Positions 12,888-52,699 of a stretch of 64,000 bases of DNA are shown here, piece after piece (the first letter of the stretch is position 1; each line of letters opens with the position of its first letter). The DNA comes from an uncultured Monoglobus sp. (lineage in GTDB: Bacteria > Bacillota > Clostridia > Monoglobales > Monoglobaceae): contig CANQMT010000009.1 of assembly GCA_947625055.1 (NCBI GenBank), positions 12,750 through 76,749 of the forward strand, in the 5' to 3' direction. The position numbers and the translations under genes are program-made. Below the pieces are notes generated by a model. That model made no database searches and was not told where the DNA came from. It saw nothing but the letters and a program-made list of their open reading frames with translations.

Positions 12888-12916
12888 TTGAAATTTTTAG
12901 CGAATTATGGTATTAT
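12888..12916 (+). promoter_or_regulatory. Promoter of the small-peptide mRNA
   Basis: TTGAAA (12888-93), 17 bp, TATTAT (12911-16), with an extended TGn motif. Confidence 0.75.
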
Positions 12917-13053
12917 ATTTACAGACGCTTTGGCGTTTACACTAAAGGGTATTTTGAGCGGTTAGCCATCTCCTATTTCTTTTTGGAAAGGAGGTGACCT
13001 CCCGATTTTGCCTTGAGTTTTTCTCAAGAGCTTATTGAAAGGAGGGATTGCTA

Positions 13054-13128
13054 ATGCTTAGAACGATTTTAAAAATAATCGTCGCTGTCGTGATATTTTT
13101 CATAATAGTAAGCACAAAAGCAATATGA
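13054..13128 (+). CDS. 24-aa hydrophobic peptide MLRTILKIIVAVVIFFIIVSTKAI, putative type I toxin (absent from the ORF track)
   Basis: Strong SD GAAAGGAGGG (13037-46), a single TM-like core flanked by basic residues, its own promoter and terminator, and a convergent antisense unit. Confidence 0.78.
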   Translation: MLRTILKIIVAVVIFFIIVSTKAI

Positions 13129-13242
13129 CCGCCCCTGAGCTAAAGTAGCGGTCATATTATTGTGACAATTAAAACTTTGGCTAACCGTTTAACGGTTCCC
13201 TTTTGTGCGATTGGGAATCGCTTTTCAGCGATTCCTTTTCGT
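13113..13242 (-). ncRNA. Putative type I antitoxin antisense RNA
   Basis: Consensus minus-strand promoter TTGACA (13277-72)-17-TATAAT (13254-49). Terminator stem AATATGACCGC/GCGGTCATATT (13122-32/13148-58) followed by GCTTTT. It overlaps the peptide stop codon and 3' UTR. Confidence 0.75.
13214..13240 (+). terminator. Terminator of the small-peptide mRNA
   Basis: GGAATCGCT-TTTC-AGCGATTCC-TTTTC. Confidence 0.8.
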
Positions 13243-13326
13243 ATTTATATTATATATTATTTTTTTGCGTTTGTCAAGTGATTTTCTTGTATCAAACATA
13301 GGTATTAGTGATTAGTAACTAGGGAC

Positions 13327-13652
13327 TAGGGCGGGACGTCGAGGGCGCCGTCCCCTACGACCATGGTGCGCAAAACGCCGTAGGCCGTAGGTGCGTCCGG
13401 ATCCGCGGAGCGGGTGCGGGGGCACTTCCGTGTTTCATTTCCACGAATAAACGAGGCCACAAATCATTAACGTGAGCGGACATGGCCGGACGACCTCGGT
13501 CGCCCGAAAGGGGAACCGCGCATACAAGAAACCCCTCTCAGTCGCCTTCGGCGCCAGCTCTCCCCAAGGGGCGAGCCGGGACGCCGGGGTCGTCGTCCCC
13601 TACGACCAAAGTACGCAAAACACCGTAGGTGCGGATATTATCCGCCCGTTTG
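13327..13652. repeat. Cluster of GTAG-type REP-like palindromes
   Basis: GCGGGACGTCGAGGGCGCCGTCCCCTAC, GGGACGCCGGGGTCGTCGTCCCCTAC and GTAGGTGCGGATATTATCCGCCCG. The same units recur at 57.78-58.01 kb. Confidence 0.8.
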
Positions 13653-47628: not shown

Positions 47629-48954
47629 TTATCGCTTTTGTTTTTTGATAAGAAAAACTATCAAAGCAAGGGTTATCAGCTCCGAGGCGGCGAACGACAG
47701 CCATATGCCGTTTATCCCAAACAGAGCGCTCAATATCAGCGCGCAGATGATGATCGCGGCCAGACCCCGCGTCAGAGAGGCGGCGGACGCGCTCAAAGCC
47801 TTGCCGGTGGCGGAAAAATATGTTGTCATTACGATGTTTATTCCCGCGGCGGCAAAGCCGATGAAATACAGCCTGATCGCGTCAACGGCGTATTCCGCGA
47901 GCAGGGCGCTGCCCTCGCTGTTGAATATCGCCGCAAGTCCGTCCGCGAACACCCGGGCGAGCGTTACTATCGCCGCCTCGATGATCAGAACCGTCACAAG
48001 GCCGGCTCTCATGTAAAGTTTCAGGTCATCGCTTTTGTCTCCGCCGCAGCACTCGCTGAGCGGCGGCTGCATTCCCTGCGCTATGCCGTTGAATATCGCG
48101 GTCGCAACAAGGGCCAGGTTTGCCACGATCCCGTAAGCGGCGACCCCGATGTTCCCGGCAGTTTTAAGCAGCAGGAAGTTAAAGACCGTGACGGTGACAG
48201 CCGAGGAGATCTCGCCCACAAAAGCCGAAGTCCCCAGCGCGCAGCATGAGATAAGCTTTTTGAGCGAGGGCCGCTCGAGGGTCGGCCTCACGCTTGATTT
48301 TTTGCCGAAAAAATGCGTGCAGCAGACCGCGCTTGAAATGACCGGAGCCGTGGCCGTCGCGAGTGCGGCGCCCGCAAGACCCATTTTGAGCGGAAACATA
48401 AAGACGTAATCGAAAATTATGTTAAACGCGCTGGCGGTCAGCAGCGCGGCCATAGCGGTCGTGGGCGCGCCGTCGTTTCTCGCGAAAGCGGTGAATGAGT
48501 AATTCATCATAAAAAACGGAGAGCCGAGCAGCACGATTCGGACATACGTTTTGCCGAGTTCGGTTATCGCCGCGTCGCCGCCCATAAGACGCAGCCACAG
48601 CTCCGGAGCCGCGGCTCCGAGAGCGGCAAACGGCGCCGAGAGAATGAGCTGCCATATCAGCGCGTGGCCGAAATATCCGTCAAGGTCATCCGCGCCGAGC
48701 GCCTTTTTGACCGCGTATCTCGTGGCGGAGCCTACGCCCGCCATTGAGCCTATTGCGAAAATAAGGCTGTAAAGCGGCAGAACAAAGTTTAAGACGGTTA
48801 TTCCGTTTGAACCCGCGTACAAAGATATGAAAAACGTGTCCGCGAGGACATAGATGGATATTCCCACCATTCCCGCCGTGCTTCGCGATATGTATTTAAA
48901 AAAGCGTTTCAGTTTTGCGCGGCTTTGAATCGCCGCCGTTTTGGTTCCTGTCAT
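47629..48954 (-). CDS. MATE-family efflux transporter
   Basis: ADTFFIS, FARNDGAP, FNIIFDY..MFPL.MGLAGAALAT and about 12 TM segments. Confidence 0.93.
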   Translation of the reverse strand: MTGTKTAAIQSRAKLKRFFKYISRSTAGMVGISIYVLADTFFISLYAGSNGITVLNFVLPLYSLIFAIGSMAGVGSATRYAVKKALGADDLDGYFGHALIWQLILSAPFAALGAAAPELWLRLMGGDAAITELGKTYVRIVLLGSPFFMMNYSFTAFARNDGAPTTAMAALLTASAFNIIFDYVFMFPLKMGLAGAALATATAPVISSAVCCTHFFGKKSSVRPTLERPSLKKLISCCALGTSAFVGEISSAVTVTVFNFLLLKTAGNIGVAAYGIVANLALVATAIFNGIAQGMQPPLSECCGGDKSDDLKLYMRAGLVTVLIIEAAIVTLARVFADGLAAIFNSEGSALLAEYAVDAIRLYFIGFAAAGINIVMTTYFSATGKALSASAASLTRGLAAIIICALILSALFGINGIWLSFAASELITLALIVFLIKKQKR

Positions 48955-48982: not shown

Positions 48983-50347
48983 TCAGGCGCGTGACCTTTC
49001 CATGCCGCGTATCAGCCGCCGCAGCACGATAACCGCGGCGATCGCCAGAACGAACTCCGCCAGCGGCTGCGCGTAGGCCAGACCGTACAGCGGGAACAGG
49101 GCGTTTAAGACAAACAGCGCGGGGATCTCAAGCACGATCTTGCGCATGATCGCGAACAGCAGCGCGCGGCCGCCGAGCCCGCAGGACTGGAACACGCCGA
49201 CGCCGAGAAAGTCCATGCACAAAAACGGCATTGAAAGACACATGCCGCGCAGAAATTCGGCGCTGTACGCCACGACCTCGGAATTTTTGATAAACAGCTC
49301 CGAGATCCCGCCGGCGGTTATGTAATAGATCAGGGCCACACCCGCCATAAACGACACGATGATCTTACCCGCGAACAGTATCGACTTTTTCATGCGTCCG
49401 ACGTCGCCCGAAGCGTAGTTATAGCCCACAAGCGGCATAATTCCCTGCGAGAAGCCGAGCGCGATCTGCATCGGGACCATGTTTATTTTCTGCGCTATTC
49501 CCATGGCGGCCACAGCGCTCGAGCCAAAGGCCGAGGTGAAGTTGTTAAGCACCGTCATTCCGGTCACGTTCAGCAGGTTCTGGATCGAGGCGGGAATTCC
49601 CACCGCGCATATCCCCTTTATGATCGACTTGTCAAACTTGAGCTTTTTGGGGTTTATGCAGACATACGTCTTTCCGCGCGTCACAAAAAGCAGCACGAAG
49701 AAATATCCGCAGGCGGCGCAGTTTGAGATAAAAGTGGCGCAGCCGGCTCCCGCGGCGCCCATGCCGAGGCCGCGGGGCAGAATAAAGATCGGGTCTAAGA
49801 TTATGTTAAGTATACAGCCGCTCATTGTGCCGATGCTCGCGTGGAGCGACGAGCCCTCGCTGCGCACGAGATAGGCCAGAACCACGTTTAAAATCGACGG
49901 CACCGCGCCGAATGAAACCGTCCATTTCATGTAAGCGGCGGTCGAGGCGGCTGTTCCGCTGTCGGCGCCGAGAAGCGTCAGCAGCGGGTTTTTAAGCGCC
50001 GTGCAGAAAAGTGAAAACAGCGCCGCCGAAAACAGCGCGCAGAAAAAGCCCATCGCTGAGCTGCGGTAGACCGTCTCAAAATCCTTTTTGCCGAGCGCGC
50101 GGCTCATCATGCTTGACGCGCCCACGCCGAAAAGGTTGTTGACCGCGTTGAACGCCAGCAGCACCGGAGCGGCCAGTGTGACCGCCGCGTTTTCGATAGG
50201 GTCGCCAAGCATGCCCACAAAATATGTGTCGGCGAGGTTATAAAGCACCATAACAAGAGAGCTGATGACGGTCGGCACAGCCAGCTTCATCACCGCTCTC
50301 GGTATCGGCGTTTGTTCAAATAATTCGGTTTTTTCCGCGTTTTCCAT
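48983..50347 (-). CDS. MATE-family efflux transporter (MepA-like)
   Basis: LAVPTV, YNLADTYFVG, RSEG, NIILDPIFI..GMG.AGA and QGIMPLVGYNYAS. It has its own promoter, TTGAAA-17-TATAAT (50413-50385). Confidence 0.93.
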   Translation of the reverse strand: MENAEKTELFEQTPIPRAVMKLAVPTVISSLVMVLYNLADTYFVGMLGDPIENAAVTLAAPVLLAFNAVNNLFGVGASSMMSRALGKKDFETVYRSSAMGFFCALFSAALFSLFCTALKNPLLTLLGADSGTAASTAAYMKWTVSFGAVPSILNVVLAYLVRSEGSSLHASIGTMSGCILNIILDPIFILPRGLGMGAAGAGCATFISNCAACGYFFVLLFVTRGKTYVCINPKKLKFDKSIIKGICAVGIPASIQNLLNVTGMTVLNNFTSAFGSSAVAAMGIAQKINMVPMQIALGFSQGIMPLVGYNYASGDVGRMKKSILFAGKIIVSFMAGVALIYYITAGGISELFIKNSEVVAYSAEFLRGMCLSMPFLCMDFLGVGVFQSCGLGGRALLFAIMRKIVLEIPALFVLNALFPLYGLAYAQPLAEFVLAIAAVIVLRRLIRGMERSRA

Positions 50348-50411
50348 TTATCTGTCTCTTTTCGGTAATGTTTTGAATAGAAATATTATAATATAAAACT
50401 TTTGATATTTC

Positions 50412-50518
50412 AACCTAAAAGACTAACCGATCCAAAGTTTGCGCTCAAAGGATCGGTTATCTTATTAACTATTCTGCGAAGCGGCTGACCGTTTTTACGC
50501 TCTGCCGTTTCTCTTTGT
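50412..50518 (-). ncRNA. Candidate small RNA C, related to the 13.1-13.2 kb antitoxin-like RNA
   Basis: Consensus TTGACA (50553-48)-17-TATAAT (50530-25). Terminator TAACCGATCC/GGATCGGTTA plus GTCTTTT. Shares AAACGGT(T/C)AGCC with the 13.2-kb RNA. Confidence 0.62.
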
Positions 50519-50567
50519 ATGATTATTATATATTACTTTTTTGTCTTTGTCAAGTATGAATTAATAT

Positions 50568-51134
50568 TTACTCAACTTTGGCGGTGACACGGGCGGGGAC
50601 CCCGACCGCGACCGAGTTTTCGGGCACGTCCTTTGTGACCACGGCTCCGGCTCCGACGATCGCGCCGTCTCCTATGGTCACGCCGGGCAGGATCGTGGCG
50701 TTTGAGCCTATCCAGACGTTTTCGCCGATCCTGACAGGCGCGGGGTTGTTGTCGTGCCTTTGTGCGATCGGGATCCCGTGGTTGATCGTGGCGATAACCA
50801 CGTTATGGCCGATAAGCGCGCCGCTGCCGATCGTTATTCCGCCCCAGTCCTGAAAGCGGCAGCCCGAATTGATGAACACGTTTTTTCCGACGGTTATGTT
50901 CAGGCCGCAGTCCGCGGAAAACGGCGGGAACAGCCCGAAGCCGTCGTCGACCGGCTTGCCGATAAGTCTTGAAAAAATCTCCCGAAGCTCGGTCGGCTCG
51001 TGATACGCGGAGTTCAGTTCGGTCGTTATCCTGATCGCCCGCTGGCTCAGCTCGTGCATCATAATATGCATGCCGGAGCCGCCCTCGGCTCCCCTGCCCT
51101 CTCTCATTTGTTTAAGGAATTCCTCTGTTGTCAA
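50568..51134 (-). CDS. Sugar O-acetyltransferase (Maa/LacA-like, hexapeptide repeat)
   Basis: PPFSADCGLNITVGKNVFIN, IGENVWIG and VGAGAVVTKDVP...GVPAR. TTG 51134 follows GGAGG. Confidence 0.9.
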   Translation of the reverse strand: MTTEEFLKQMREGRGAEGGSGMHIMMHELSQRAIRITTELNSAYHEPTELREIFSRLIGKPVDDGFGLFPPFSADCGLNITVGKNVFINSGCRFQDWGGITIGSGALIGHNVVIATINHGIPIAQRHDNNPAPVRIGENVWIGSNATILPGVTIGDGAIVGAGAVVTKDVPENSVAVGVPARVTAKVE

Positions 51135-51151
51135 TTTTTTTCCTCCCTGTT

Positions 51152-52699
51152 TTATATTTCCAAAGGCAGCGTCAAGGGCCTTATCGTGTTTAAGTCCCAA
51201 AGAAACGCCTTGATTTTTGTCCCTTCCGGAACCTCGCCCAGATATATTGTCGCCGTGCCCTCGCTTTCGGCGGCGGTTTTCACGTCCGCGATCATTCCGC
51301 CGCGGTACGAGACCGCGATAAGCGTGCCGCCCGCGGGCGCGCCGCTCACCGTGATCGTTCCGCCGTCGACGGTTATCCGCGGATTATTCTCCGTCATAAC
51401 CAATTCAATACCCTCGCTCTTTCCGAGATTGCGGCTGTATTGCTTATCCTCGCCGTTGTTCCAATGCTCGTGAACGCCGAGATTTGAGACCGCGTTTCCC
51501 TTGCTGTCGGTATAAACCGTGCCGGAGGGCGGCGCGGCGGCGAGGCCCGCCTCGTGCAGATAGTTTTCAACCGTTCTGTCCTTCGCGGCGCGGTTGTTCT
51601 CGGTGACTGCGGGTTCGTTCACCAGAAAATCCGCGCCCACCGAGTCGATCGCCACCGGGTCCTGCGACGCGAACACGCTCGATGTGTAACCGCCGTTAAA
51701 CGGGCTTTGGCGCCATTTTGAGTTTTCGCCGGTTATCGAGGCGCCCTCGGACGGGGCGCAGATGATCGCGTCGAGCATATAAAGCACGGTCTTGCCGCCC
51801 AAGTCCGCGTTGGCCATAAGATCGACCAGCGGGCTGTATATTCCCATTTTGCTCATCGTCAGCCACTGATGCAGATTGGCTCCCTCGGGCGGGCGCATCA
51901 TGTTCCCGTTGATGAACGAGCCGAAATGGTTTTTGCCGCAAAGCGTTATACCGTAGCTGTGACCCTTGAGATTTGCTAGGTTTATCACATATTCCGCCTC
52001 GGTAACGCAGGTCGGCAGATAATTCACCCTGCCGCCGAACTCGTGCGACCAGATTATCGGCGCGTTCTCGTCCGCTGTCCCGTTGTCGCGGGTGACGAAG
52101 TTCACGCCGCTCAAAATTCCCTCGCTGCACATGCCGACCATATAATCCGGGAAGAGGCGTGACACGTCGTAGACCGTGATGTTTTCGGGCGCGACTCCCG
52201 CCTCGGCCACAAGCGACGTGAGCAGAGCCTTAAGCAGCACCGGGTTGGTGTAGCTCATCATTGTTCTTCCCGAGGTGTCGTCGTCCATTACCGCCGAGCC
52301 GTTTATGTTCGCCTTTATCGCGATCTTCTCGCCGTCTTTATAGCCGCCGCTTTTGCCGCGCCTGCCGTTTATGTTCTCAAACAGAGCGGGCCATGCCTCC
52401 GCGGCGGAGCTTTTCCCTGCGAGCGAGGCGATCGACGAGCTTACCATGGCCTTGACCGCGTCCTCGTCAAAGTGATCCGTTTCCCACCAGTATCCGCTTC
52501 CGTCCCAGTCGACGCAGCTTGGGTCATAAGCCCAAACGACTCTGCCGGGCATCACGCCGACGCCTTGTCCGTAGGGCTCATGCGGAGGGAAAACATTTTC
52601 CTGCGGAAAAACGCTTTCCTCAGCGAAAGCGCCCGTGAGCGCTCCGCAAATCATAAAGACCGCCGCGGCGGCTGATATTATCTTAACGCCGATGCTCAT
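51152..52699 (-). CDS. Secreted DUF362-domain protein with a C-terminal 'LWD..PL' module
   Basis: Signal peptide, GEKIAIKAN, INLANLKGH..GITLCGKNHFG and SQDPVAIDSV. Family assignment is from recall. Confidence 0.75.
   Translation of the reverse strand: MSIGVKIISAAAAVFMICGALTGAFAEESVFPQENVFPPHEPYGQGVGVMPGRVVWAYDPSCVDWDGSGYWWETDHFDEDAVKAMVSSSIASLAGKSSAAEAWPALFENINGRRGKSGGYKDGEKIAIKANINGSAVMDDDTSGRTMMSYTNPVLLKALLTSLVAEAGVAPENITVYDVSRLFPDYMVGMCSEGILSGVNFVTRDNGTADENAPIIWSHEFGGRVNYLPTCVTEAEYVINLANLKGHSYGITLCGKNHFGSFINGNMMRPPEGANLHQWLTMSKMGIYSPLVDLMANADLGGKTVLYMLDAIICAPSEGASITGENSKWRQSPFNGGYTSSVFASQDPVAIDSVGADFLVNEPAVTENNRAAKDRTVENYLHEAGLAAAPPSGTVYTDSKGNAVSNLGVHEHWNNGEDKQYSRNLGKSEGIELVMTENNPRITVDGGTITVSGAPAGGTLIAVSYRGGMIADVKTAAESEGTATIYLGEVPEGTKIKAFLWDLNTIRPLTLPLEI

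Follow-up and report, generated by a model that had tools for sequence, protein, structure and literature searches.

Type I antitoxins are usually thought to be strictly cis-encoded partners of one toxin, and decayed chromosomal copies of hok/Sok are common. [quoted passage not shown] SR4 promotes decay and alters the structure around the Shine–Dalgarno (SD) sequence from a distance, with its linker and terminator loop making the first contact (PMC3834814), and type I systems of B. subtilis are reported to depend on RNase III (PMC3531473). SprG/SprF (Staphylococcus aureus) and RCd11/RCd12 (C. difficile) are multicopy, 3′-overlapping pairs in which every antitoxin has a cognate toxin and neutralization is mostly cognate-specific. 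Most characterized type I antitoxins neutralize their cognate toxin only (PMC6393307, PMC6563280); RNA-level cross-regulation between non-cognate pairs has been described among SprG/SprF copies (PMC6393307), and in C. difficile a near-identical non-cognate antitoxin can stand in for the cognate one despite three mismatches (PMC6563280).

Here, we analyzed a 64,000-nt stretch (the window) of the genome of an uncultured Monoglobus sp. from the rabbit gut. A 140-bp spacer in it is very probably, judging by sequence, the small RNA (sRNA; antitoxin) half of a repeated cassette, family A, whose toxin half has been deleted. Intact paralogues of this cassette resemble bsrG/SR4 and txpA/RatA in combining a gene for a hydrophobic peptide, a structured 5′UTR with a sequestered SD, and a convergent sRNA of ~100 nt that would be antisense to the 3′ portion of the toxin transcript, with sigma-A-type promoters on both sides. 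Unlike these systems, family A has no sequence or family match in Rfam, Pfam, or NCBIfam, and the window locus has no toxin at all. It likewise differs from SprG/SprF and RCd11/RCd12 in lacking a cis partner and in the conservation of its pairing domain throughout the family. Taking all of the evidence together, the best explanation, and probably the right one, is the orphaned antitoxin half of a type I TA-like family A cassette, plausibly active in trans. The locus would then be a clear, datable case of an sRNA that outlives its toxin, stays constrained, and keeps complementarity to paralogous toxin messages, which allows a direct test of antitoxin sharing in multicopy type I systems.

The promoter–sRNA–terminator unit and its junction with the MATE operon

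The spacer lies between an acetyltransferase gene and two genes for MATE efflux pumps. The features of the site are as follows.

50568..51200, minus strand: hexapeptide-repeat acetyltransferase gene (PF00132, 2.3e-17)
50553..50525, minus strand: orphan sRNA promoter, TTGACA-17-TATAAT, sigma-A-type, 12/12 (−35 TTGACA at 50553-50548, 17-nt spacer, −10 TATAAT at 50530-50525)
50414..50520, minus strand: predicted orphan sRNA of ~105 nt, with its start taken from the −10 box and its 3′ end from the U tract
50475..50516, minus strand: conserved 5′ domain and hairpin (AAAGAGAAACGGCAGAGCGTAAAAACGGTCAGCCGCTTCG), invariant columns in the family alignment
50494..50483, minus strand: motif AAACGGTCAGCC, in common with an RNA at 13.2 kb
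50424..50459, minus strand: terminator hairpin with a 10-bp stem and a 16-nt loop containing the family-typical AAACUUU
50416..50418, plus strand: TAA at the aligned position of the paralogues' toxin stop, all that remains of the lost toxin gene
50413..50385, minus strand: MATE operon promoter, TTGAAA-17-TATAAT, 11/12, outside the cassette
48983..50347, minus strand: first MATE efflux gene (PF01554, 8.7e-38)
47629-48954: second MATE gene (PF01554, 6.6e-29)

The first-pass annotation had described a minus-strand unit of ~105 nt at this site, and both the promoter and the terminator stem that it named were found. The −10 box would place the start of the orphan transcript at ~50518-50520. From there the RNA runs through a hairpin (about nt 8-46), an A/U-rich linker, the 10-bp stem, and the tail GUCUUUUAGG; the 109-nt transcript is predicted to fold at −33.9 kcal/mol (z = −3.95 vs shuffles). 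The stem arms are TAACCGATCC (50424-50433) and GGATCGGTTA (50450-50459), followed by GTCTTTTAGG on the minus strand, and compensatory changes occur in this stem among the paralogues. Intact copies have longer U tracts (UUAUUUUUUAUUG) than this tail (50423-50414). On the plus strand, AAA-GAC-TAA (50418-50426) enters the terminator stem and an in-frame TGA lies at 50403-50405; no SD, start codon, or peptide frame was found opposite the sRNA, so that the earlier reading of these letters, like its other statements on the sequence, was correct. By alignment with the paralogues, however, the remnant of the toxin stop is the TAA at 50416-50418, and not the AAA-GAC-TAA singled out at first reading.

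The sRNA −35 box lies 14 nt past the acetyltransferase stop codon, and the MATE −35 box begins 4 nt past the sRNA tail. No terminator was found between the acetyltransferase gene and the sRNA promoter (50554-50570), and the acetyltransferase transcript, having no terminator of its own, therefore probably ends at the sRNA terminator. Such a transcript should cross the whole sRNA gene, and the sRNA sequence may hence occur as a 3′UTR as well.

Homology to the paralogues ends at the TAA at 50416-50418, and homology to the MATE promoters of other species starts at ~50415. Both homologies meet there, and a rearrangement therefore fused the sRNA side of a cassette with the MATE promoter, the joint lying exactly where the toxin gene ended. 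All sequence past the toxin stop was replaced by the MATE operon promoter, which left a free-standing promoter–sRNA–terminator unit. A 651-nt stretch comprising the acetyltransferase end, the sRNA, and the MATE start was found at 95-96% identity in only two other genomes (G015 and G005). In two further genomes (G014 and G004), the MATE promoter is the same, but the sRNA unit is missing and a different, divergent gene lies upstream, and in G007 and G016 the MATE orthologue directly follows another gene, again without the unit. An intact ancestral state, with a peptide ORF at the orthologous site as sought by the first-pass annotation, was not found in any genome: the acetyltransferase–sRNA–MATE synteny occurs only in the window genome (G000), G015, and G005, all three already orphans, and no cassette follows the more distant homologues of the acetyltransferase gene.

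This arrangement bears on two cis-acting explanations. One is that the unit has been co-opted as a terminator for the acetyltransferase gene that insulates the MATE operon, as a promoter feeding the MATE genes through a weakened terminator, or as both. The absence of any other terminator after the acetyltransferase gene, the proximity of the sRNA −35 box to its stop codon, the shortened tail, and the MATE −35 box immediately beyond it are in line with such a role. However, a terminator role leaves the conservation of the promoter and 5′ domain unexplained, the MATE operon has its own promoter that is conserved in species without the unit (a separate promoter having already been noted from the sequence), and other orphans of the family stand in unrelated contexts. 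We therefore consider co-option improbable as the main explanation; termination of the acetyltransferase transcript and insulation of the MATE promoter would instead be by-products of an orphaned antitoxin gene.

The other is that the unit is a ligand- or ribosome-dependent attenuator (a riboswitch or leader) of the MATE pumps, which was raised at first reading as the alternative that could refute an antitoxin. It lies upstream of efflux genes and places a terminator between a promoter and the operon, as an attenuator would. Nevertheless, no Rfam family matched the window at gathering thresholds, and at E ≤ 10 the region 50250-50650 gave chance-level matches alone (E ≥ 0.5). The orphan leader contains no ATG or GTG, its sole start-like triplets being TTG without an SD, and inspection of the sequence and MFE fold by eye revealed no antiterminator pairing. 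Furthermore, 57 further copies in the genus are located beside toxin ORFs, not pumps, and the MATE orthologues in G014, G004, G007, and G016 do without the unit. An attenuator is thus very improbable, and for annotation purposes the spacer should not be taken for a pump riboswitch.

Family A cassettes and the repeated loss of the toxin

We searched the genome's own 2.21-Mb assembly by BLASTN, which is independent of any covariance model, and found five paralogues at 82-88% identity (E = 1e-27 to 1e-19), the matches running from the promoter to ~55 nt into the RNA. These closest relatives were absent from the first-pass annotation, which had offered an orphan antitoxin, a decayed TA locus, and a member of a multicopy sRNA family as separate possibilities; with six copies of family A in this genome, including the window locus, and the ORF side gone here, the three descriptions turn out to fit one and the same thing. 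A covariance model (R1) was built from an alignment (A1) of nine sRNAs with the window orphan in the seed, where it scores 105.4 bits as a seed member. The window locus has all traits of a family A sRNA: a consensus promoter, a 5′ hairpin with AACGGCAGAGCGTAAAAACGG, an A/U-rich linker, and an AAACU-loop terminator. Hence, there is little doubt that it is an orphaned member of this cassette family. A seventh R1 match in the genome (C20:33117-33176, 32 bits) was an ordinary terminator and was rejected as a family member.

Three paralogues, L003 (MLMKNLFFKILFALLVIIVIFAIFAQSVQ), L004 (MRNYFFKVFLALLVIVVLFAILATPVQ), and L005 (MLMKNFAFKILAALLVIIVLLAIFASAVQ), have an intact convergent small ORF with a good SD, ending a few bases ahead of the shared hairpin. 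In such an intact cassette, the consensus promoter would drive an sRNA of ~105 nt antisense to the 3′ untranslated end of the toxin mRNA, and a TTGAAA-17-TG-TATTAT promoter, found ahead of all three ORFs, would drive an mRNA with a leader of ~170 nt, an SD paired in the predicted fold, and a coding region for a peptide of 27-30 aa ending in VQ*. In eight loci (L005, L029, L032, L065, L068, L069, L078, and L084), ~100 extra nt lie between the 5′UTR element described below and the SD (element–SD distance 224-244 vs 118-133 nt), with a hairpin AAAAATCGCAGGCGATTTTTT in some. The peptides are hydrophobic (M.K..FFKIL.ALLVIIV.FAIFA..VQ*); searched against Pfam-A and NCBIfam, they gave nothing better than E = 0.08, far below cut-offs, and no profile match to type I toxin families (Fst/Ldr, TxpA/BsrG, Hok, Ibs, etc.). 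Two other paralogues keep only the last 8-9 codons of the ORF (FAIFAASVQ* in L002 and SGFASAVQ* in L006), and the window copy keeps none. No VQ* ORF, toxin promoter, or 5′UTR element (AAAAGGCAGAG..ACGGTTGGCCGCTTC) was found within 700 nt of the window locus, which is for this reason classed as an orphan and not as a complete module.

A covariance-model scan of the genome and its relatives, as proposed at first reading, returned 58 R1 matches of at least 80 bits in 9 of the 17 genomes of the genus, with weaker matches in two more; at the order level, matches occurred in 2 of 29 genera. Reading all 58 strong matches showed that 46 are convergent to an intact ORF of 27-30 aa and 12 are not. An exact 21-nt core of the sRNA was found in 61 stretches of a species-representative genome collection, all of them in rabbit (‘Lapin’) gut metagenome-assembled genomes (MAGs) labelled Monoglobus sp. 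or uncultured Clostridia, and was absent from IMG/VR and JGI metagenomes. No family A sRNA was found in a complete, single-contig genome of 2.8 Mb from the same genus (G012). Family A is patchy within the genus and, by its exact core, confined to rabbit-gut MAGs, all carriers being MAGs. As far as profile searches of its RNA and peptides go, this type I TA-like family of narrow distribution is uncatalogued. Another genome of the genus (G001) has seven divergent R1 matches (38-78 bits) without the exact sRNA core, and these loci probably form a third superfamily branch.

The loci without an intact toxin ORF fall into the following classes and single cases.

Window locus and its orthologues in G015 and G005: orphan class
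L002 and its orthologues in G008 and G007: orphan class
L006 and its orthologue in G005: orphan class
L086: orphan whose old stop codon is directly adjoined by a pseudouridine-synthase-like gene
L053: orphan with a deletion from the toxin promoter into the middle of the ORF
L083 and L057: doubtful orphan cases

Thus, the toxin has been lost with the sRNA kept at least five independent times in the genus, three classes being common to two to three species, and near-consensus promoters are retained in all orphans. No toxin copy without an sRNA was found in this genome. A toxin that never occurs without its sRNA here, set against an sRNA that occurs without a toxin in 12 of the 58 loci of the genus, is the asymmetry expected of a true TA pair, and family A is likely to be one.

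We then compared the window orphan with its orthologues. Across the three genomes (G000, G015, and G005), the orphan transcript has 1 variable column of 110 (0.9%), an extra U in the tail, whereas its flanks have 213 of 3163 (Fisher p = 0.005); against the neighboring non-coding DNA only, the difference holds at p = 0.019. Variable columns amount to 8.2% in the acetyltransferase gene, 5.6% in the MATE gene, 7.7% in the MATE promoter/leader, and 7.2% further upstream. In the second orphan class (G000, G008, and G007), the RNA has 8 variable columns of 108 (7.4%) compared with 21 of 81 (25.9%) in the toxin remnant and spacer (p = 0.0005) and 16.8% in the upstream flank (p = 0.005). This modest but consistent evidence from 3 + 3 genomes suggests that the orphan RNAs are under constraint. 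Some of the conservation could be due to gene conversion among paralogues, or to a requirement for termination downstream of the acetyltransferase gene.

The same comparison weighs on the most serious rival, namely a neutral relic: an sRNA gene that survived deletion of the toxin, has no function, and is too young to have decayed. The three genomes are only 4-6% diverged in the flanks, so few changes (~7) would be expected in 110 nt; some other orphans look a little weaker (86.7 bits for L082, whose −35 box is TTGAAA, and 82.6 bits for L086), and the window U tract has shortened relative to those of intact copies. On the other hand, the RNA is more conserved than adjacent coding and non-coding DNA in two independent classes, the toxin remnant of the second class decays 3.5 times faster than the RNA, the window promoter is still 12/12, and at least five independent orphans keep promoter, 5′ domain, and terminator. 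We consequently regard a functionless relic as unlikely, and an orphaned antitoxin remains the preferred reading.

Predicted pairing with paralogous toxin messages

Uninterrupted complementarity between the window orphan and the predicted 3′UTRs of L003, L004, and L005 extends over 25, 29, and 29 nt, respectively. The corresponding duplexes are predicted at −95 to −99 kcal/mol, compared with −36 ± 5 for the shuffled orphan and −200 for cognate pairs. Cross-regulation of paralogous peptide mRNAs, which had been suggested as a possibility, is thus strongly predicted for three family A toxin mRNAs. Here, the toxin mRNA is assumed to continue past the shared hairpin, which lacks a U tract on the toxin strand, as far as a second hairpin; a simple terminator scan found none on the toxin strand. 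If the toxin mRNA were to stop at the shared hairpin, the orphan 5′ domain would have no complement there. The orphan differs from the intact copies in the linker and terminator loop.

In the MFE folds of the full-length L003 and L004 toxin mRNAs, an element in the 5′UTR (GGAGAAAC...AAAAGGCAGAG..ACGUAAGGACGGUUGRCCGCUUC) is paired with the mRNA's own 3′ end (GAAGCGGCCAAACCGUUUUUACGCUCUGCCGUUUCUC), a sequence antisense to the sRNA 5′ domain. Intact loci have the element at a fixed position, and it is absent from orphans. In all 33 intact loci tested, element and 3′ end are complementary, and their duplex has a mean predicted energy of −44.6 kcal/mol, compared with −18.1 for shuffles. Cognate combinations were no better than non-cognate ones (−44.58 vs −44.52 kcal/mol; permutation 1887/5000), giving no signal of co-evolution, and the complementarity is accordingly a family constant whose domain is interchangeable within the family. 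Any family A sRNA is hence predicted to match any family A toxin mRNA at its 3′ end. Such family-constant complementarity would explain the near-invariant sRNA 5′ domain among the paralogues.

The 5′ domain of the orphan (50475..50516) has the same sense as the toxin 5′UTR element. In family A, unlike in bsrG/SR4, the sRNA 5′ domain is therefore a same-sense copy of that element, both being complementary to the mRNA 3′ end, and the predicted design is unusual in that the sRNA would mimic the very element through which the toxin mRNA folds back onto its 3′ end. The predicted 5′–3′ closure resembles the fbi element of hok mRNA (PMC9841398). The hok/Sok systems of plasmid R1 and E. coli chromosomes differ from family A in that Sok binds the 5′ leader and not the 3′ end, and they belong to a different phylum with no homology.

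With its promoter intact at 12/12, the orphan RNA can be assumed to be still made, and since its 5′ domain is the family-wide pairing domain, it would act in trans. The three toxin mRNAs transcribed from intact paralogues (contigs C2 and C18) would be bound at their 3′ ends, the orphan serving them as a spare or pooled antitoxin. If bsrG/SR4 and txpA/RatA, and the reported role of RNase III in such systems, are taken as models, pairing would lead to duplex cleavage and decay; in addition or instead, it would disturb the predicted 5′–3′ closure, which may free the 5′UTR element and alter the leader structure. That the window orphan itself functions in trans is a claim we make tentatively, in spite of its being a serious candidate.

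A broader reading is that antitoxin-only loci are a selected class, a pooled supply that buffers all paralogous toxins or immunizes against incoming cassettes. With the pairing domain functionally identical in all copies, the cell would run a pooled antitoxin supply, into which about one-fifth of the cassettes would have been turned as free-standing sRNAs. We consider such selection doubtful at present; if true, antitoxin-only loci would be the type I counterpart of anti-addiction modules.

Relation to the family B cassette at 13.2 kb

A second cassette type, family B, is present in the same window.

12888..13277: family B cassette (24-aa peptide and convergent sRNA), locus 1 of the first-pass annotation
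13190..13179, minus strand: motif AAACGGTTAGCC in the family B sRNA

The window orphan had initially been linked to the RNA at 13.2 kb through a common motif, AAACGGT(T/C)AGCC, at a similar place, and the motif does lie 23-24 nt ahead of the terminator stem in each RNA. The motif AAACGGTYAGCC occurs five times in the 2.21-Mb genome, compared with 0.55 expected, and all five sites are in promoter–terminator sRNA units (two in family A and three in family B), each 23-24 nt ahead of the terminator. The kinship holds at the superfamily level, as indicated by promoter, architecture, and motif, but it is not close: R1 scores the family B sRNA at 14.4 bits (E = 0.35; 13166-13244, minus strand), which is below significance, and the transcribed parts of the A and B sRNAs do not align. 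Their sRNA promoters agree at 30 of 33 positions, and their toxin −10 regions match without a difference over 13 nt. The promoter 31-mer of the window orphan is 28/31 identical to the sRNA promoter at 13.2 kb and has eight sites in the genome within six mismatches, seven of them being family A or B sRNA promoters. At G000 C5:95 (plus strand), a promoter 27/31 identical to the A/B sRNA promoters stands ahead of an unrelated hairpin RNA (GGGTTCAGTCAGAGCAGCCGCTGAGATAAGCGGACTGACGG), which may be another small RNA with the same promoter type.

Family B resembles family A in its convergent architecture, the CGGTYAGCC core in the sRNA, and the predicted 5′–3′ closure of the toxin mRNA, whereas its 24-aa peptide ends in KAI* instead of the VQ* of the 27-30-aa family A peptides, and the sequences are unrelated. 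For the family B toxin mRNA (window 12924-13243, plus strand), the closure is centered on CGGUUAGCC / GGCUAACCG (z = −9.96). In both families, the predicted closure of the toxin mRNA has this motif at its core, and the motif thus marks an equivalent functional core in two diverged branches of the superfamily. Regulation of the 13.0-kb family B peptide mRNA by the orphan, as first proposed, is not supported, the predicted duplex (−48.4 kcal/mol) being no better than shuffles (−49.7 ± 4.6).

The two families also occur side by side. In L006 (G000 C18, ~33.9 kb), a family B cassette (peptide MKHFLRVIFFTIMFLVFF...) lies ~250 nt from an A-type orphan sRNA, and the same neighborhood was found in a second species (L082 in G005). 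The genome has 52 clusters of the repeat TAGG[GA]A[CT]TAG (e.g., at ~13290-13330 of the window and in the flanks of L004, L005, and L006), often beside GC-rich hairpins such as GGGCGGATAATATCCGCCC. Of the 10 family A/B cassettes, 6 have such a cluster within 1.2 kb, compared with ~0.6 expected.
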